Virus record (IMG/VR): IMGVR_UViG_3300034349_000001
Coordinates: 1-41,463 of that record
Length of the DNA stretch: 41,463 nt
Strand: one strand, 5' to 3'
From: a virus
Lineage: Duplodnaviria > Caudoviricetes
The stretch's first letter is position 1. Each line of letters opens with the position of its first letter. The position numbers and the translations under genes are program-made. Shown here in pieces: positions 5,494-41,315 of this stretch. Under the pieces are notes generated by a model. That model did not search any database and was not told the origin of the DNA. It saw only the letters and a list, made by a program, of their open reading frames with translations.

Positions 5494-7635
5494 TTAGTGA
5501 CACTCACGCCATGTGGGTCCGATCTTGTAGTCGGTGTCCAATGGGCAGCGGAAGTTGAATGATTCGCCAACATTGCGGATTGCTTGTTGACAGATTGCAG
5601 CGATGATCTCAGCGATCTCAGGGGTGCGGCAGGCGATCTGAAGTTCGTCGTGGACCCATGCCATAAAGCAGAAGTCACCGGGATTCCCTTCATCGTCATA
5701 CCAGCCATGGACGTAGCCCTGCTCTTGGCAGAGACGCTCCACTTCGACGACCCACTTCTTGCACACCAAGGCACCAGCGGACTGGAGCAGCGAGTTGAGC
5801 GCAGAGTGTGGGGAGCGGACATGGATCTTTCGGCCATCGAGACCTTTGATCCAACGGCGCTTCCACTTGATGTCGAACTTGCGAGTGGCTTGGTTCCACT
5901 TCTGCTCGGAGATGAGTTGTTCTTCGAGGGCACCGCGTAGGCCACTAATGGCCGGGGTGTTTTCCATGAAGTCCTTCTTGAGTTGCTTCCCTTCCTTCTT
6001 GCCACCACCAACGAAGGAACCGACCAGACCATCACCAGCGCCATAAAGGAACGCATAGATGAACGTCTTGGCCACATCGCGGAAGGCGTCATGTTCGTGG
6101 TTCGACTTGTCCCGTACCAGACCAGCAGGCGTGATGCCAGCGGCCAGCCCGTTGACCCAGTGGATGTCCCCGTTGAGTACGGTGTCCACATAGGAACCAC
6201 CATCGAAAGGAACCCCGAAGTGACCCAAGCAACGAAGCTCAAGGCCACTGGCATCGGAGCCCAGTTGGACTGCTCGTTCCCAGCCCTTCTTCAGCTTCCT
6301 CGCAAAGAGCGCCCCAAAGAGCGCACGGCACGCAGGTCCGTACTTCTTCTTGGCGCTCGGCACTTGGCCCATGTTCGGATGGGAGTGGGTCGCACGGCCT
6401 GTTACAGCCCCGTTAGGGTTCACTGAGCCATGGATACAGCCATCGTCACGCACGTAGCGCAGCCACGCCTTGTCGCCCTCAGAGAGCATCCCGATCACCT
6501 TAGTGACCTCAAGGAATTCCCTCACGAGGTTGATGCAGAGTTGCTTCTTGGGATCAGAGACCTTGACGAATTCAAGGACCTCATCGTCCATCTTGGCAGC
6601 GCCAGTGTTGGTCAGCTCAGTGGGGACCCAGCCAGCATCCCGAAGGACCTTCTCAAGGTGCGCCCGTGAGCCGGGGTTGAACGTGATGAACTCGATGGGG
6701 GTGTATGGAGCGCCCTCAAAGGTCTCACGGGTGTCCTTGCGTTTCCCATCCTTGAGGTAGACACCGCCCACCTTCGGGTACTTGACCTTGGGCATGACAC
6801 GGCCATCAGACCAGTAGTCGATAGGCTGGCCGGACTTCGGATTGAGGAACGGCGAGGTGCCCCCTTTAGGTTGCCACCAAGACCCGAAGGTCTGGATGAG
6901 TTCCACGAGGAGGTCACTACGCCTGCCTGCCAGTTCGCAGTACAGCTTCTCAGCCCCATCAGTGTCGAAGGGGAAGCCGTTGCGTTCCATCTGAGAGAGC
7001 GTCCATGCAGCGGCGTGTTCCAAGCGAACGGCCTCAATGGCCTCGCCTTGATCGTTGAAGTAGTGCAGGTCCGAGAGGATCTTACGGAACAACATAGAGG
7101 TGACACGAACGTCCTGCTCGCAGTAGTCCTCCATGGCTTGTGAGCATTCCAGCCATTCCATGCCCGGTGTGTACTCAATGCCACCGTCTTCGCAGAGCTT
7201 GATGAAGTCGGTCTTGTACTCGCCCTTCATCTCGCCCAGACGATAGCCCCACGACTCCAGAGAGTGAGAGCCAAACATCTTGCCGGGAAGGATGCCAGAG
7301 CGGAGCAGACCAGCGTCACGGTCGCCCACGTTGGAGTAGACCAGACGGGTCATCACCAGAGTGTCCATCACGCGCTTCCTTGGGATGTTCAAACGCTTGC
7401 CGAAGTAGAGGCGCTTGAGCTTGTCCAGAACCGGGATGTCGTACTTGATGAAGTTGTGCCCGACGATCATGCCATCAGGCTTGGCAGCTTCGGCTTCGAG
7501 AGCAGCAAGGTACTCAGCGAAGGTGGACTCATCGTACCGGGTGTATTGCCCAGTGAAGTAGTCCTGAATGGTGGCGCAGTGGAACCGGGTTACTTGTTCG
7601 TAGAGCCCGTTCGTTTCAATGTCAGAGATGAGCAT
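5494..7635 (-). CDS. gp5: Family A DNA polymerase with 3'-5' exonuclease and thioredoxin-binding loop
   Basis: DIETNG, GHNFIKYD, DASGLELR, RDVAKTFIYAFLYG and WVHDE motifs; GSWWQPKGG...APYTP loop. Confidence 0.98.
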   Translation of the reverse strand: MLISDIETNGLYEQVTRFHCATIQDYFTGQYTRYDESTFAEYLAALEAEAAKPDGMIVGHNFIKYDIPVLDKLKRLYFGKRLNIPRKRVMDTLVMTRLVYSNVGDRDAGLLRSGILPGKMFGSHSLESWGYRLGEMKGEYKTDFIKLCEDGGIEYTPGMEWLECSQAMEDYCEQDVRVTSMLFRKILSDLHYFNDQGEAIEAVRLEHAAAWTLSQMERNGFPFDTDGAEKLYCELAGRRSDLLVELIQTFGSWWQPKGGTSPFLNPKSGQPIDYWSDGRVMPKVKYPKVGGVYLKDGKRKDTRETFEGAPYTPIEFITFNPGSRAHLEKVLRDAGWVPTELTNTGAAKMDDEVLEFVKVSDPKKQLCINLVREFLEVTKVIGMLSEGDKAWLRYVRDDGCIHGSVNPNGAVTGRATHSHPNMGQVPSAKKKYGPACRALFGALFARKLKKGWERAVQLGSDASGLELRCLGHFGVPFDGGSYVDTVLNGDIHWVNGLAAGITPAGLVRDKSNHEHDAFRDVAKTFIYAFLYGAGDGLVGSFVGGGKKEGKQLKKDFMENTPAISGLRGALEEQLISEQKWNQATRKFDIKWKRRWIKGLDGRKIHVRSPHSALNSLLQSAGALVCKKWVVEVERLCQEQGYVHGWYDDEGNPGDFCFMAWVHDELQIACRTPEIAEIIAAICQQAIRNVGESFNFRCPLDTDYKIGPTWRECH

Positions 7636-7645
7636 GAGGCCCTCC

Positions 7646-8119
7646 TTAGTTGGAGAAGGCGACAGCGCTCAGTGGCAGCCATACGACTTCAGGGTTGAAC
7701 GCATGGACCGCGAACTTGAACAGCACGGCATAGCCGGTGTACTCATTCGAGCGGTGGTAGCGGATCTCGATGGCATGGAACGAACGACCATCGAAGTGAT
7801 GGGTCGCGCTGTACTTGCGCAGTTGGTGGTTCAATGGGATGCACTCAGGGCGCACTCGGAAATTCTTGCCGACCATTGGGGCCACAAGGTGCCAGTTCGG
7901 ACCACGAGGGTCGTCCTTAATGCGGGCCTTAATGTCCTCGTCAACCTTGTCAGCGATCATCTTTTGGATGGCCGCAACGATTGGGTCGATTGGGTTCACC
8001 GGGGCCTTCCAATGTGGATGCTCGCGCTGGTTATCAACGAACGAGTAGTCCATCTTTTCGAGGACCTCAATGGCCAGCTCACCTTTCTTCAGTTGCTTGC
8101 GGATGTCGGAATAGTTCAA
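7646..8119 (-). CDS. Hypothetical protein (about 157 aa)
   Basis: TTG start after AAGGGGGA; fills the gap before DNA polymerase. Confidence 0.75.
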   Translation of the reverse strand: MNYSDIRKQLKKGELAIEVLEKMDYSFVDNQREHPHWKAPVNPIDPIVAAIQKMIADKVDEDIKARIKDDPRGPNWHLVAPMVGKNFRVRPECIPLNHQLRKYSATHHFDGRSFHAIEIRYHRSNEYTGYAVLFKFAVHAFNPEVVWLPLSAVAFSN

Positions 8120-8156
8120 GTTTGTTTCCCCCTTGTAGCGTTGGTATGAAGTCACT

Positions 8157-8178
8157 AAAAGGCCCCCGTTAGGAGGCC
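8157..8178 (-). terminator. Intrinsic terminator-like hairpin
   Basis: GGCCTCC-TAAC-GGGGGCC-TTTT, just after the stop at 8185. Confidence 0.55.
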
Positions 8179-8184
8179 CTTGGA

Positions 8185-8379
8185 TCACTTCACGCGCTTG
8201 ATGTCTTGGTGGCGCCAGTCAGCTTCCACACGGGATTGGACGGTGCTTTGCAGGGCGCTCTGGGCAGCCGAGATGGCAGCCTTCAAGGACGCCTCACGGG
8301 CCAGGAGTTTCGAGTGACGCTTCTCTTGGATACGGCCAGCCAGAGTGATGAGGAAAGTTACGAGGTCGAAGTTGCGCAT
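8185..8379 (-). CDS. Small helical protein, gp4.3-like by position and size
   Basis: MRNFDLVTFLITLAGR.. after TAAGGAG; 64 aa, Ala-rich, follows primase/helicase. Confidence 0.7.
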   Translation of the reverse strand: MRNFDLVTFLITLAGRIQEKRHSKLLAREASLKAAISAAQSALQSTVQSRVEADWRHQDIKRVK

Positions 8380-8392
8380 GAGTTGGTACTCC

Positions 8393-10628
<2,236 letters not shown>

Positions 10629-15541: not shown

Positions 15542-18196
15542 TTATGCAAAAGCAAATTCAGATTTGAGGATTTCACGGATGTCCAGAGTTCCTTTCTCAG
15601 GAAGCTCAGGCATCTTGTCGAGTTGGGTTTCGTGCAACTGCTCCATGAACTGGTCACGGAAGTCAGCGAGTACATCGTTGTTCTCATACGTCTCAACCAT
15701 CGTTTCCCGTACAGCGCGGAACATCGCACCGGCTTTCGCAGGGATGGTCCCGAAGGAGTCATGGATGAGGCAGAAGAAGTCGATCCCGTAGTTCTCAGCA
15801 GCATGGACCACCGTCTTGCGGAGGTGACTGCCATCTTGGGAGTGAACAAAGTTTGGCGAGATGCCCGACTCTTGTTTGCGGGCGTCGATCTTGTCGCTAT
15901 CTCGCACAGTCACGGTGGACTGCAAGCGGATGTCCCCGAGGAACATCAGGTCGATACGGCGGGTCTCTGGGACCATGTATTCCTGCCACACCGGGAAGCC
16001 ATCAGGCGTACACCAGTAGACAGGCATTGCAGGCTTCAGCAGGTCTTTCGTCTTCTTGCACTTGACCTCAGAGGACAGCAGCTTCGCAGCCTTCTGGAGC
16101 CAGTTCATTGCTTCTACAGCAGCGACCACTACAACACTCACTGAGTCCCAGATGAGGCCAGCCATGAAGCGGCTCGCTTGACCCGGATCGGTGAACATGT
16201 GGCCTTCATCGTTATCAATCGCTTTCTTCACGATGTCTTCACGAACCTGATCGGCGAACCCGTAGGCTTTCGATCCGTAGGCGAGGGTCATCACGGAGCG
16301 CTTAGTTACCTTTCGGGACATTCCGTAGGAGAGCCAAGCCATAGCGAGGGTTTTTGTTCCAAGGACCACTCGTTCCTTAATTTCTCCCGTCTTTTCATCG
16401 ACGAGGGTCTCAGTGGTGTTATCGGTTCCGGTGGCAGCGAGTACGAGTAGGGCAGCTTCAACTTCGTCAGAGACGAGCTTGTAGATGTCTTGAACGGTTT
16501 CGCTGGGAAGCAGATTGACCGCCCGACCCCCACGTTCATCGCGAAGCATTGCAGAGAAGTGCTGGATACCAGAACACGATCCATCGAAAGCGATTGGTAT
16601 AGCTGAAACATGGTTGGCGCCATCACGCTTAACTCCTTCCCACTCGAAGCAGAATGCTAAGAAACAGAACGGCGAGTCCAGGCTCATCCATTCGATATTG
16701 GTTAGTGGGTCTCGGGCAGTCGCAAGGATCATCCCTTCGTTGTCCAGAACCCACTGCTTGCGTTCCTCAAAGGTGACCTTATCGACCCCAGCGGTGTTCG
16801 CACCGTGAATCATCAGCCACTGAATCCCTTCCTCACCGACCGGCTCACCCTTAGCTGCCTGCAAGACACCTTTGGTCATGTCATTGGACTGAGGGTTGAA
16901 CGCAGGGATCGCATAGACCCGGCCACGCCAATCGAGGTTGTAAGGGAAGTAGATGGCCTCGAAGTCCTTGAACTTGTTGGCCTGCTCAAGGGAGAACTCA
17001 TAGGAGAGTCGCCGAGAGACCCTTGCGGCATCCTTGCGGTAGATCGCAGAGGCTGCCTTCTTCCACACCTTGAGAGCTTCCTCGTTGGTGTCGATGTCAA
17101 ATGGCTTGGTCGGCAGTTCCTCACGTTCCGTTGTCGGGAACTCTTTGATCGGGACGTTCTTCCATTCCATCACCGCGTTGGCCACATCGAGAACTCGACG
17201 GTTGATGGCCCATGCGGTGTTCTGAGCGAGGTTCACAGCCTTGTAGACCTCAGGCATGTGGACATCCTTGTAACGCTTCAAGGCCCGCTTAGAGGGGACC
17301 CGGATGAACGTCACAGGCTTGCGACCTTTGGCCCAGTAGCCACCACCTTGAGTCGAGACCCACGGCTTCGGCTGTACGACCATTGGCTGGTAGCGCGGGA
17401 AGATCCCCGAGAGGATGTAGGCCCGAGACTGGAGCTTCTCAGCCCATTCCGACTTGAGGTAGACGTACTCACCGTCAAGCTTCTTGTTGCCCTTGTGTTC
17501 ACGAACGACCTCAATCAACTGGGTCGATTCGATCAGCAGCTCCAACATGCGAATGCCCATGTGGTACTTCACATCGGCTTCCATGGCATCCCATTGCTGC
17601 CACTCGTGGGTCAGCTTGCCATCGTCAATCATTTGCTGCTCGATCCGCGCCATGTACTCCACCTTGTAGGTGTTGCCATTGCGTTGAGCGAGGGCCTTCT
17701 TGAGGTGGCGCTGGTAGTAGGCTTGCTCGGCTTGCCGAACTCGACCATAACGAGCTTCTTCTTCGAGGGCACCACCGATGCTCACAGCCATCTCAGTGAT
17801 GGTCGGAGCGCCGTTGCGTTGAGCGATGCGGTTGATCGTCCAGCGAATGGTCACCGAGGCGATAACGTCAGGGTTCATTTGCTGGAAGGCAGCCAGAGCT
17901 ACGTGCTTGCGCCGTACCTTCGTGGTCTGGTGTTCGATCCACTCGGCGATTGCCGTTGAGAGGAGCGGTACGAGGGTTCCGAGGAGTGGCTTGGCGACTG
18001 AGTTCATGGAGAACTCGCCACGGTCCTGAGACTTCTCAAGGGCCTTGAGGAACTTCTCCTCGCCCAGTGTGTAGGCTTCATGTTCCAAGTGCAGTTGCTC
18101 AGCGGCGAGTGCTTCACCGTAGATGGCTGCAAGGGAGTCGAAGGCGTGAGTTGCGGTGATGTCGCTAAAGTCGTGACGCGCAGATGCTTCAAACAT
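15542..18196 (-). CDS. gp1: Single-subunit T7-type RNA polymerase
   Basis: 884 aa; DWRGRVY, FDGSCSGIQH, RKVTKRSVMTLAYG, IHDSFGT and C-terminal FAFA. Confidence 0.99.
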   Translation of the reverse strand: MFEASARHDFSDITATHAFDSLAAIYGEALAAEQLHLEHEAYTLGEEKFLKALEKSQDRGEFSMNSVAKPLLGTLVPLLSTAIAEWIEHQTTKVRRKHVALAAFQQMNPDVIASVTIRWTINRIAQRNGAPTITEMAVSIGGALEEEARYGRVRQAEQAYYQRHLKKALAQRNGNTYKVEYMARIEQQMIDDGKLTHEWQQWDAMEADVKYHMGIRMLELLIESTQLIEVVREHKGNKKLDGEYVYLKSEWAEKLQSRAYILSGIFPRYQPMVVQPKPWVSTQGGGYWAKGRKPVTFIRVPSKRALKRYKDVHMPEVYKAVNLAQNTAWAINRRVLDVANAVMEWKNVPIKEFPTTEREELPTKPFDIDTNEEALKVWKKAASAIYRKDAARVSRRLSYEFSLEQANKFKDFEAIYFPYNLDWRGRVYAIPAFNPQSNDMTKGVLQAAKGEPVGEEGIQWLMIHGANTAGVDKVTFEERKQWVLDNEGMILATARDPLTNIEWMSLDSPFCFLAFCFEWEGVKRDGANHVSAIPIAFDGSCSGIQHFSAMLRDERGGRAVNLLPSETVQDIYKLVSDEVEAALLVLAATGTDNTTETLVDEKTGEIKERVVLGTKTLAMAWLSYGMSRKVTKRSVMTLAYGSKAYGFADQVREDIVKKAIDNDEGHMFTDPGQASRFMAGLIWDSVSVVVVAAVEAMNWLQKAAKLLSSEVKCKKTKDLLKPAMPVYWCTPDGFPVWQEYMVPETRRIDLMFLGDIRLQSTVTVRDSDKIDARKQESGISPNFVHSQDGSHLRKTVVHAAENYGIDFFCLIHDSFGTIPAKAGAMFRAVRETMVETYENNDVLADFRDQFMEQLHETQLDKMPELPEKGTLDIREILKSEFAFA

Positions 18197-35677: not shown

Positions 35678-35700
35678 GGTGGCCATAGTGAGGGGTTTTA
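35678..35700 (-). promoter_or_regulatory. Phage RNAP late promoter (phi13-like)
   Basis: TAAAACCCCTCACTATGGCCACC. Confidence 0.87.
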
Positions 35701-38134: not shown

Positions 38135-38719
38135 TTATCTGTTAGCGATACCACCGACGAATGAGTCACCGTCGATCATGTTGAAGCCACCGAAGTCCAG
38201 CTCGTATTCCTGAATGGAAGCCCAAGCGTCGTTCTCTTGTTCCTGCAAGGAGCCCTCGATTTCACCAGCACCGAAGAACCGGATGTTGAATCGACGGGAA
38301 GCCTTGGCGACGATGTACGAGCGGAAACACTCAGGCATCTCAGAGAAGCTCTTGAGCTTGATGAGGTCTACCGTGATGGGACCCGTGAAGACATCTGAGC
38401 GAGCGGTGCGGTCATAGACGTAGCCACCGCGATTGATGTACAGCGTGCCCCCAGTGGTGGTCATGCGGAGGAAGTCCGACATGTACTCAATGAGGTTCGA
38501 GAAGGTGTCAGGCAGAAGCGTTGCGCCCTCCTCAATGTTGAAGGTCCAGCCCTTCGCTTGGATCTCCCGGTTAACCTGAGCGAGGATGCGACGACAGTTC
38601 GCTACGTCAGCGTTAGGGTCGCCCTCAAGGGAGTTCACAGGGGACTCGCCGATAGCAGCGAGCATGTCGTTTACAGCTTGGAGTTCTTCGTCAAGCTCCA
38701 GTACCGATTCGGTAGCCAT
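38135..38719 (-). CDS. gp11: Tail tubular protein A (adaptor)
   Basis: [24 protein letters not shown] and MPECFR. Confidence 0.96.
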
Positions 38720-38733
38720 GGTTTCTCCTTAAT

Positions 38734-38770
38734 AAAAAAAACCCCACAGAGCCGGGTAGGCCCCATGGGG
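38734..38770 (-). terminator. Late terminator (Tphi-like)
   Basis: CCCCATGGGGCC-TACCC-GGCTCTGTGGGG-TTTTTTTT, located after the capsid extension ORF. Confidence 0.9.
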
Positions 38771-38782
38771 AGAGAGTTGTCG

Positions 38783-40210
38783 TTAAACGTCTTGAGCTTT
38801 GATGCCCACGATTGGTCGCGACAGGATGAGGCGCATATCCACAGGGCCAGTTGTGAAGGACAGCGTGATGCCGAACTTGCACGCAGTGGCGTCCGTAGCG
38901 AGCGTCTTAGTGACGATCTTTGCAGGGCCGGTGTAGGCAGGAACTGGACCATATCCGACCAGAGTTTGGTCATGGAACAGTCGGCCACCGCCAGTCTTGA
39001 TGTCAGCCAGAGCCCACGCTTGGAGACCTACAGGAACGCTGGTTCCATCGACCTTCGTCATCACAAGCTCACACCCAGCAGACAGGGCTTGGTTAGCCAA
39101 AGCTTTGATGAGGGAGTTGTGGCACGAGAGCTGGACGAGACCTTGAGAGGTCGCGCTGCCAGTGATGTCGATCTGGATAGCGTTGAGGCCACCTACAGTG
39201 GTCATGGAGCCAACAACGGTTGCGCCAGAGGCGTTCGTCAGGGTCCACTTCTCAGCGATGGTGCCAGTTGCAGGAGCCGTTACGGTCCCCGGAATGGTTG
39301 CCGAGAGAGTTGGGTTCAAGATCTGGTTAACAGGCATGAACGTGTGCCATGCAGCAGCAGGGTAGGTGAAGTAATTCGCAGCGACGTGCGCTTGGATATT
39401 ACGACCACCTTTCGAGTTGCTATGCGTACCATCCATGGACACGTTAGTGTCGGTAGGGTCGTATGCAGCGTCAGCGTTCAGGTAGTTAAAGTTCTTCCCA
39501 GTGATGTTCGCAAGACCATAGTTGAAGTCCAAGCGATACTTCTGGTTCACGCCACCATCAGACAGAACAACACGAGGCAAGATGCCCAGCCAGTTCACAC
39601 GAACGCCACCAGCGTTGTATGCGTCAATGATCTGGTTAGCCAGAACGAGAGCAGCAGGAGCCGTAGTGTCCATGTAGTTGTTGGTGCCGCAATGGATGAA
39701 GATGTCAGTCATCGAAGGGTTCTCTGAGAGGTTCCTTGGAATGTCTGCCAGTACATCCTGAAGCTTGTGTCCACCAGTGCCGTCAGTACCAGCCAAGCCA
39801 ATGTGGCCTGAGAAGCGCATCTTGGAACCAGAGGCCAACATTAAGTTTGCAGCCCATGAGCGACCATCCTCGTTCGCAGTCAGGCTATCGCCTTCAAACA
39901 GTGCGACTCGGGTTGCGGTATCCCATGTGTTCTTAGCGATGGTCTCAGCGATTACCGTGAGGGTTGTAGTGGAAGTGAATCCACCATCAGCGGTAGTAAC
40001 TGTGATCGTAGTGGTCCCCAGAGCGAAGGCCATAACGAGACCTTGAGGTGTGACATCAGCGACCAGCGTGTTGCTCGACGAGAATGTGACGGCCTTATTG
40101 GCAGCCGTTCCCGGTAGAACAGTCCAAGCCAACTGAGAGGACCCATAACGGGCCACACTCAGAGTAGGCGAGGACATGCTCACACCAGTTACGGTTACGC
40201 TGCCGGAGTA
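38783..40210 (-). CDS. gp10B: Capsid -1 frameshift extension (gp10B-type): Ig-like Big_2 + SGNH/GDSL hydrolase + CBM-like domain
   Basis: The -1 frame is open from the slippery site. VTVTGVSMS..VTFSSSN..VADV...G.V....GTTTITVTTADGGF Ig pattern; GDSL, GTNN and DGTH blocks. Confidence 0.82.
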   Translation of the reverse strand, partial: YSGSVTVTGVSMSSPTLSVARYGSSQLAWTVLPGTAANKAVTFSSSNTLVADVTPQGLVMAFALGTTTITVTTADGGFTSTTTLTVIAETIAKNTWDTATRVALFEGDSLTANEDGRSWAANLMLASGSKMRFSGHIGLAGTDGTGGHKLQDVLADIPRNLSENPSMTDIFIHCGTNNYMDTTAPAALVLANQIIDAYNAGGVRVNWLGILPRVVLSDGGVNQKYRLDFNYGLANITGKNFNYLNADAAYDPTDTNVSMDGTHSNSKGGRNIQAHVAANYFTYPAAAWHTFMPVNQILNPTLSATIPGTVTAPATGTIAEKWTLTNASGATVVGSMTTVGGLNAIQIDITGSATSQGLVQLSCHNSLIKALANQALSAGCELVMTKVDGTSVPVGLQAWALADIKTGGGRLFHDQTLVGYGPVPAYTGPAKIVTKTLATDATACKFGITLSFTTGPVDMRLILSRPIVGIKAQDV

Positions 40211-41223
40211 AAAACCAGTGCGCCAGCGGCTTCAGGACGAAGACCACCGTGACCCATTGCGTACTTACCGATGATCTGGTCAGCTTGGAACTCAGCACGA
40301 CGAGCGCGCTCCAGTGCCATGTCTTTCAGCTTCACGGTGCCTACTGCCGAACGGTGGTTGAACAAGCCAATCACGTTGTTGACAGCTACCTTGTCGTCAC
40401 CGCTGGTAACAGCAGGGAAGATGTGGCGTTGGTTAGTACCGATGGTGTCATCGCCAGCACCGCCAACGGTCAAGTGTGGAACTTCGATGATCTCGAAGCC
40501 CATGACGTTGCGGATGTTGCCGGTTTCTGGGTCGATCAGCGCGCTGTAGTTAGCGGCGTTCGGCATCAGAGCGGACAGGATTGCGCTGTAGTCGTCAGGC
40601 GAGGTGTAGAAGCGACGATCCGAGGCCGGAACGTAGTTCTTGGTCAGACGGGCACGGGCCAGAGTCAGACCTTTCAGGATTGCTTTACCACGCAGTTCCA
40701 CGTCAACGAGGTCAGCAGCAGCACCAATGTTCAGAACAATGGCAGTACCCAGACCAGCGATGTTTTCGTTGGAAGCGGCAGGCAGGTTGCACAGCTTCGC
40801 CATCTCGGCCAGTACAGCACCGTCAGCAGCGATAGCCAGAGCTTCACCCAGTTGAGCCGAGTACTCAGCACGAACGTCGTAGTGGTTCATCGCGTCTTCG
40901 ATGTCGTAGATCAACACGTCGCTGGTCAACAGACCGTCGATGGTAATCACTTTCTCGGAGTGCTTGATGTCCTTACGCTTGTCATCCAAGTTCTCGCCAG
41001 CAGCAAGGTAGTAGCCCTTGGTACGACCCATGACCGGGAAGCTTGCGCTCTTACCGTTCTGGATGGTGCGGACCATATGCTTGTCCATGGTGACGGAACG
41101 ACGCACGAATGCAGTCAGAACTTCGCCACCGAAGACTTTCAGGAACATGGCCAGTTTGTCGGCAGGGTTTTGACCTTTGCCTTGGTTCGAGCCGATTGCT
41201 TGACCGCCAGTTGCGTTTGCCAT
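40195..41223 (-). CDS. gp10A: Major capsid protein
   Basis: 342 aa; FLKVFGGEVLTAF, GKSASFPVMGR and YAMGHGGLRPEAAG. Confidence 0.98.
   Translation of the reverse strand: MANATGGQAIGSNQGKGQNPADKLAMFLKVFGGEVLTAFVRRSVTMDKHMVRTIQNGKSASFPVMGRTKGYYLAAGENLDDKRKDIKHSEKVITIDGLLTSDVLIYDIEDAMNHYDVRAEYSAQLGEALAIAADGAVLAEMAKLCNLPAASNENIAGLGTAIVLNIGAAADLVDVELRGKAILKGLTLARARLTKNYVPASDRRFYTSPDDYSAILSALMPNAANYSALIDPETGNIRNVMGFEIIEVPHLTVGGAGDDTIGTNQRHIFPAVTSGDDKVAVNNVIGLFNHRSAVGTVKLKDMALERARRAEFQADQIIGKYAMGHGGLRPEAAGALVFTPAA
40210..40216 (-). other. Putative -1 ribosomal slippery site G-GTT-TTT
   Basis: In capsid frame at Val-Phe, 4 sense codons before the stop; analogous to T7 G-GUU-UUC. Confidence 0.78.
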
Positions 41224-41292: not shown

Positions 41293-41315
41293 TGTAGCCA
41301 TAGTGAGGGTTTTTA
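41293..41315 (-). promoter_or_regulatory. Phage RNAP late promoter (phi10-like)
   Basis: TAAAAACCCTCACTATGGCTACA. Confidence 0.92.

Follow-up and report, generated by a model that had tools for sequence, protein, structure and literature searches.

This work describes gene 10 of a T7-like phage, represented by IMG/VR virus record IMGVR_UViG_3300034349_000001 and analysed over its full 41,463 nucleotides (nt; hereafter the window), together with the long reading frame that continues from the capsid gene in the -1 frame. The capsid gene ends in CTG GTT TTT ACT CCG GCA GCG TAA (Leu-Val-Phe-Thr-Pro-Ala-Ala-stop) and contains a slippery heptamer, G_GTT_TTT, from which a -1 shift is predicted to lead into 475 further codons. 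The product would be a fusion of 338 + 475 = 813 amino acids (aa; 85.3 kDa), in which the major capsid protein is followed by an immunoglobulin (Ig)-like domain, an SGNH hydrolase-fold domain and a β-domain resembling a carbohydrate-binding module (CBM). A preliminary description of this DNA, made from the sequence alone, had proposed the same capsid 3' end, shift site, open frame and approximate fusion size, and each was reproduced here. The features of the locus are listed in Table 1.

Table 1. Features of the gene 10 region of the window (dN/dS, ratio of nonsynonymous to synonymous substitution rates; E, E-value)
Feature	Position	Strand	Basis
Phage RNA polymerase promoter before gene 10	41297..41313	-	Motif match; position equals the annotated gh-1 promoter ahead of gene 10
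Major capsid protein gp10A, 342 aa, 36.3 kDa	40195..41223	-	Pfam PF21703 (Gp10A-like), E 1.1e-112
Slippery heptamer G_GTT_TTT (Val337-Phe338), predicted -1 shift site	40210..40216	-	Sequence and covariation with the extension
-1 frame extension, 475 codons and stop	38783..40210	-	Sequence; dN/dS <1 in all four regions
Ig-like (Big_2) domain, residues ~5-89 of the 476-aa frame	39947..40201	-	Pfam PF02368, E 4.8e-11, residues 8-83; PDB 7quz, E 7e-13
ATG (Met61), mid-Ig, used as the start by most Ghunavirus annotations, possible internal start	40031..40033	-	Found in every Ghunavirus carrier inspected; Pifdecavirus lacks it
SGNH hydrolase-fold domain; Ser110, Gly148, Asn178, Asp261, His264	39368..39913	-	AlphaFold2 (AF2) model, structure match, invariant residues
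C-terminal all-β domain, CBM-like by fold	38786..39337	-	Foldseek matches; Atlas lead
T-phi-like terminator behind the extension	38733..38770	-	12-pair stem (38770-38742) and T run; Phi-S1 terminator annotated at the same position
gp11 tail tubular protein A, gene next after the extension	38135..38719	-	Pfam PF17212, E 4.4e-51

Slippery site and open -1 frame

The -1 frame is free of stops over 482 codons, counted from stop to stop (40231-38783), and the off-frames of the capsid gene contain 18 stops each in 341 codons. Among the 9005 codon positions of 16 large open reading frames (ORFs), the only in-frame G_GTT_TTY is the gene 10 site. Because the off-frames are stop-rich and the heptamer is unique in-frame, the combination of open frame and slippery site is not attributable to chance. 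An assembly or sequencing error at the junction was ruled out, since contigs from two other runs bridge it (X2 with one difference and X4, a ~90% relative) and no indel occurs there among the best-supported variants listed for contigs of other runs. Of the listed variants that fall within the extension, 8/9 are at third codon positions.

The locus has the arrangement of T7/T3-type 10B loci: a gp10A gene with a slippery site in its final codons, and a -1 frame that stays open past the 10A stop and ends before T-phi and gene 11. The terminator that the preliminary description had placed behind the extension was found there as a stem followed by a T run. The promoter motif matches 11 times in the window, against 0.15 matches expected by chance, and none of the 11 lies between the promoter ahead of gene 10 and position 35698, which rules out an internal promoter for the extension.

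Domain anatomy of the extension

The extension had been described as an Ig domain, an SGNH esterase and a CBM-like module. This anatomy is well supported by comparison and structure, with moderate support for its CBM-like part. The Ig-like domain matches Big_2 profile positions 2-77 of 79 in one frame, ruling out a split domain in which the shift adds the first Ig strands and the next gene the rest. The SGNH motifs lie where they had been placed (GDSL 39892-39881, GTNN 39688-39677 and DGTH 39433-39422). Neither SGNH nor CBM was detected in the window protein itself by Pfam or PDB sequence searches; Pfam GDSL families were assigned to 4/6 close homologues and to 42/50 members of a deep alignment. 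Ser (block I), Gly (block II), Asn (block III) and Asp-x-x-His (block V) are invariant in 8/8 close homologues and at least 90% conserved in the 50 aligned sequences.

Structure prediction, which the preliminary description had suggested as a check, returned the SGNH fold. A first AF2 model from 8 sequences was mediocre (predicted local distance difference test, pLDDT, 68.8), and a 50-sequence alignment was used instead for residues 93-476, giving a pLDDT of 92.4 and a predicted TM-score (pTM) of 0.90. The modelled SGNH domain aligns with 4rsh over 165 residues (Z 20.3, root-mean-square deviation, rmsd, 2.2). The domain is predicted, and considered likely, to be catalytically active.

For the β-domain, taken within the larger model, Foldseek matched CBM11, CBM4-2 and a hyaluronan-binding module (E 1e-6 to 1e-3, target TM 0.46-0.55). 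It has no Pfam match, and its Atlas CBM_4_9 score of 0.87-0.89, which falls below 0.9, serves as a lead only. The structure-match lists for the model were taken up by SGNH matches and leave the β-domain unranked. These fold matches give only moderate support for a CBM-like last domain.

Covariation of the slippery site with the extension

Capsid loci were collected from the 80 best IMG/VR capsid matches, 9 records picked as carriers, 2 IMG/VR loci and 13 of 60 listed capsid matches. This sample is a selection of the available loci, from which all duplicates and four loci lacking a capsid stop were removed. Among 31 distinct capsid genes with at least 88% identity, the slippery Val codon is GTT in 8/8 genes with an extension and in 0/23 without, where GTC or GTA is found in 23/23 (Fisher p 1.3e-7). 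At other Val codons the share of GTT is 35-37% in carriers and non-carriers alike, and the genes have 374 variable sites, of which the slippery Val codon is the only one that separates carriers from non-carriers. On a capsid tree built without the last 15 codons the carriers are scattered, with a single clade rejected (approximately unbiased test, p 1.6e-77) and at least 5 changes. Phylogenetically independent pairs agree in 5/5 cases (sign test p 0.0625; five pairs cannot reach 0.05). In a wider tally a motif was present in 58/58 loci with an extension and 3/34 without; as this count includes an A_AAG motif defined after seeing the data and is partly circular, the conclusion rests on the GTT test.

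In the four Pifdecavirus carriers inspected (4/4 CEPEST phages) the motif ahead of the module is GAA-AAG, and the module again lies in the -1 frame; relatives with the Ig domain only have GTT-TTC or ACA/CCA-AAG at the site. C_CCA_AAG is the slippery site of T3. Ten relatives without GTT-TTY and with a -1 extension of 84-93 codons carry an in-frame xxA-AAG instead, which suggests swaps between two slippery-site types. Two further loci may hold decaying extensions: in L038 a 344-nt gap behind gene 10 holds neither a slippery site nor a long -1 frame, and L049 keeps the site, its extension stopping after 16 codons.

Selection was assessed in the 54 codons that separate the capsid stop from Met61, the one conserved Met and the start chosen in most Ghunavirus annotations. 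Here five Ghunavirus pairs have a dN/dS of 0.13-0.32, comparisons with Pifdecavirus give 0.35 and 0.45, 2 near-identical pairs give 0, and 1 pair is saturated; in the SGNH region it is 0.03-0.24. By this measure, the codons upstream of Met61 are under purifying selection. The comparative evidence favours a frameshift, and we regard it as very likely, on sequence grounds, that a -1 shift occurs at G_GUU_UUU.

Distribution of the module

A survey of relatives, also suggested earlier, showed that the architecture recurs. The extension was found by tblastn in 30 phage records, i.e. 29 phages (Phi-S1 twice), all of Pseudomonas and 27 with at least 80% cover, versus 1449 records matched by the capsid protein. 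The junction was inspected in 15/29 phages, and in 11 of these the module is complete and lies in the -1 frame. A profile search against 1.84 billion representatives gave 92 matches; IMG/VR held 2 loci, and the metagenome scan gave no confirmed locus. No in-frame capsid-esterase fusion was seen among longer proteins (834-2380 aa; weak evidence) or in a search whose range covers 813 aa, and an 812-aa match, P0078, is an unrelated FGE-sulfatase/SGNH protein.

Beyond gene 10, a 'lipase' of phage phiPsa374 is homologous over both the SGNH and β-domains (hhalign probability 99.9, 344 columns) and corresponds by gene order and size to gp053, which was detected in purified virions by mass spectrometry with 42 peptides. 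In an Asticcacaulis contig, a relative is flanked by the tail terminator and major tail genes. As homologues lie in phiPsa374 virions and in the Asticcacaulis structural cluster, the SGNH and β unit looks like a mobile virion module. In phiPsa374 (region 6827-10437) the SGNH gene stands beside minor tail and 'head fiber' genes, just ahead of terminase and portal, and the place of its product in the virion could be the head. The Asticcacaulis homologue (contig 6001-7200) has apparently degenerate catalytic residues and follows a small fibre-like gene in a prophage-like or gene-transfer-agent-like structural cluster.

Comparison with known systems

In T7 the gene 10 frameshift takes place on a heptamer of G_GU type, and the T3 10B extension is an Ig-like domain (PMC5009743). 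The window shares with T7/T3 10A/10B the gene, G_GUU_UUY at homologous codons and an extension within the gene 10 unit before T-phi. It differs in the last base of the heptamer (T in the window, C in T7) and in the distance to the terminator, which holds a long-range stimulator ~200 nt away in T7 (PMC5009743) and lies 1.44 kb away in the window. The largest difference is the cargo: 475 aa in three domains, one of enzyme fold, whereas related loci add ~40-55 or 84-93 codons.

The P421 'minor capsid protein' gp37 is a true homologue (59% identical) at the same locus and in the same frame. Tarakanov et al. 2022 noted its predicted SGNH domain and suggested a role in adsorption (PMC9003214). There it is treated as a separate gene; the word 'frameshift' occurs 0 times in the text of that paper, which gives no fusion, Ig or CBM anatomy and reports no test of the protein.

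Tail esterases, such as G7C gp63.1, the spikes of Pectobacterium phages PP99, Q19 and PP47 and the tailspikes of Moo19/B2, likewise place an SGNH-type or esterase domain on the virion and deacetylate surface polysaccharide. The SGNH model aligns with gp63.1 over 178 residues (Z 16.6, rmsd 2.6). Those enzymes are tail receptor-binding proteins, whereas the putative enzyme of the window would be attached to the capsid protein, in a phage that also has an ordinary T7-type tail fibre. By Pfam, its N-terminal partner is capsid plus Big_2 instead of a gp63.1-type tail anchor, and the T7 tail-anchor domain belongs to the fibre, which has a gene of its own.

Two other systems share part of the arrangement. 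phiPsa374 gp053 (PHROG 6102) has both domains, occurs in virions and overlaps in host group, but is a free 425-aa gene in a myovirus and involves no frameshift. TpeX of lactococcal 936 phages is an extension of the major tail protein in which programmed frameshifting places a CBM after an Ig-like adhesin, with host binding shown (PMC6669499); this protein belongs to the tail tube rather than the capsid and has no catalytic domain.

Proposed mechanism

We propose that a frameshift in a minority of translation events probably yields an 813-aa 10A-Ig-SGNH-CBM-like minor capsid protein, an accessory esterase on the head. On a minority of ribosomes translating gene 10, the Val- and Phe-tRNAs would slip back one base at G_GUU_UUU, and the fusion would co-assemble with 10A in the head, its extension outside. 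If made, the fusion is likely incorporated into heads, by analogy with T7/T3 10B. The shift rate of T7 is ~10%, at which 415 subunits would give up to ~40 fusion copies. T7 display vectors present proteins as long as 1200 aa on 10B, at no more than 15 copies per head (PMC3499470).

In this scheme the older 10B cargo would be the Ig domain, acting as a stalk, behind which the SGNH and β unit would have been added as a mobile virion module. The β-domain would bind, and the SGNH domain deacetylate, O-acetylated surface or matrix polysaccharide around Pseudomonas cells, as tail esterases do. That O-acetylated polysaccharide around Pseudomonas cells is the substrate class is a slightly favoured assumption; alginate or acetylated cellulose are guesses from Pseudomonas biology. 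The tail fibre would stay the main receptor-binding protein, while the head enzyme would help the particle hold to or move through the matrix.

A more far-reaching version can be put forward only tentatively. Here the phage would practise natural phage display: a few to a few dozen copies of active deacetylase and binding module would strip acetyl groups from Pseudomonas matrix polysaccharide and open strains otherwise not lysed, the site would be switched off synonymously when the cargo is lost, and phages P421 and P413 would be a knockout pair.

Contrary evidence and alternative explanations

Several observations weigh against the proposed fusion and its role, and are considered here with the alternatives. 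The slippery codon and the module are adjacent, and recombination could co-transfer both and inflate the covariation. No local 3' stimulatory structure stood out above shuffles within 70 nt (z -1.14 to +1.46, 17 loci). Furthermore, the module is broken or deleted in 4/15 cultured phages inspected. P413, Brt_Psa3 and BIM BV-46 have module deletions with 8-14 nt overlaps at the deletion ends; in Phi-S1 one extra G closes the -1 frame after 21 codons and puts the module out of that frame. The Phi-S1 insertion (locus ~1455-1460) lies in a G run just past the capsid stop and may be a sequencing error or an inactivating mutation. In Brt_Psa3 (locus 1414-2133) the deletion is in-frame: most of the Ig and SGNH domains are gone and the β-domain is still in the -1 frame, with flanks 99% identical to Kurepalu-2.

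The host-range data are mixed. P413 and P421 differ in only three places, a 1099-nt deletion of the SGNH and β-domains in P413, gp12 D709G and a 19-nt terminase indel, and their tail fibres are identical. The nozzle protein gp12 is a host-range determinant in T7. In spot tests on Psg strains, P421 (with module) scored 12/13 and P413 (module deleted) 10/13, strains G10 and G11 being spotted by P421 alone (PMC9003214 supplement). As a module effect this difference is suggestive only: these are spot tests, the gp12 and terminase changes confound the pair, and the strain count is 13 in the text and 12 in the table of that paper. The two phages were reported from distant regions yet show three differences over 41 kb, and one may be a laboratory derivative; the P421 terminase gene has the 19-nt deletion.

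The CEPEST preprint points in the opposite direction: the host range of the carrier Kompost-2 is narrow and its infection of cells lacking O-antigen is ~1000-fold better, O-antigen makes no difference to G2 Pifdecavirus phages, and Kallioja has a broader host range. Kallioja is absent from the 30 tblastn matches to the extension. In view of these host-range and O-antigen data, the module is accessory and dispensable on laboratory lawns and is probably not the main O-antigen receptor protein.

The alternative that survives best, although unlikely, is that the fusion is displayed and serves in attachment to or release from non-host material such as plant or soil polysaccharide, or that its SGNH domain is mainly a binder. 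Among cultured carriers the module goes consistently with neither host range nor O-antigen dependence, the sequence is held by peat and rhizosphere metagenomes, and a distant homologue, P0066, lacks the catalytic Ser and His. Moreover, the fold matches of the SGNH model name no substrate, because lipases and acetyl-xylan, mannan, sialic acid and peptidoglycan esterases are tied. Against this stand the invariant triad of the close homologues and the low dN/dS of the SGNH region, the host surface polysaccharides targeted by known phage esterases (G7C, PP99, Moo19/B2), and the two host strains on which P421 and P413 differ.

Less probable still is separate translation of the ORF, with initiation at 40183/40177 or at Met61, into a free protein of 43-49 kDa (a released enzyme or a separately attached decoration), with the fusion absent or trivial. 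GenBank records do annotate the extension as a separate CDS, distant homologues are free proteins, and internal translation would be the sole route to the module in Phi-S1. Met61 is conserved in Ghunavirus carriers with an anti-Shine-Dalgarno (SD) energy of -2.9 to -6.9, a moderate match (-6.9) in four of them, and the close metagenomic homologue P0002 shares the Met at the window's position 40177. The earlier claim that the ORF lacks a good ribosome-binding site is fair without being absolute: a crude anti-SD energy is -5.4 ahead of ATG 40177, compared with -7.3 for the capsid gene. On the other side, the first Ig strand (VTVTGV, from 40198) precedes the first possible start, GTG 40183, as had been observed, and a start at Met61 would halve the Ig domain. 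The 54 codons upstream of Met61 are under purifying selection; in six other Ghunavirus carriers this stretch has no ATG, and most of its GTG/TTG codons are without an SD. The start position differs between genera, the tracking of the slippery codon with the extension would be left unexplained, and 6 other loci that share the Phi-S1 junction lack its extra G, which lies in a G run. A minor free product may exist beside the fusion.

The least probable alternative is that the fusion is mostly excluded from or clipped off mature heads and the enzyme is a soluble lysis-time product: a 49-kDa cargo is about nine times that of T7, repeated deletions in cultured phages suggest a cost and T7 tolerates large fusions at low copy only (PMC3499470), but frameshifting yields low-copy display anyway, a soluble enzyme needs no frameshift and the homologous module is virion-bound in phiPsa374.

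Novelty and relevance

The locus probably represents a 10B extension that carries an enzyme, by a mechanism itself known from T7/T3, for which the frameshift and Ig cargo are established (PMC5009743, PMC13320782). In the open-access literature we found no paper describing an SGNH or esterase-capsid frameshift fusion, most subscription journals lying outside the search, and no virion polysaccharide-modifying enzyme on the head. Part of the finding is already in print, namely the SGNH domain of P421 (PMC9003214) and the Phi-S1 record, which names the ORF 'similar to T7 gp10B', and the novelty is below that assumed in the preliminary description.

The role of 10B-type extensions is still open; a 2026 preprint states that no direct adsorption gain has been demonstrated for that of T3 (PMC13320782). 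With a catalytic serine in the extension, its function could be probed by means of a point mutant and a colour assay, for which cultured phages of P. putida KT2440 are available. If the proposal is true, a virion would carry a polysaccharide-modifying enzyme on its head instead of its tail. For biocontrol it is relevant that several cultured isolates lost the module by deletion, and for annotation that the intact annotated carriers inspected list a truncated separate gene.

Genomic context

The window has the layout of a T7-like phage and reads as circularly permuted, with minus-strand genes for RNA polymerase, terminase, tail fibre, internal virion proteins, gp12, gp11 and gp10 (Pfam). Its capsid protein is 90-93% identical to those of Ghunavirus (Pseudomonas phages), and Kompost-2 is the closest cultured genome across the structural half (79.7%). 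At least half of the window stretch is held by 3 runs, all peat metagenomes; holders overall are peat and rhizosphere metagenomes, and none of those listed is an RNA run. The 11 gh-1-type promoter matches, spread over positions 946-41313, are all on the minus strand, and one of them lies within the RNA polymerase gene (16338-16354).

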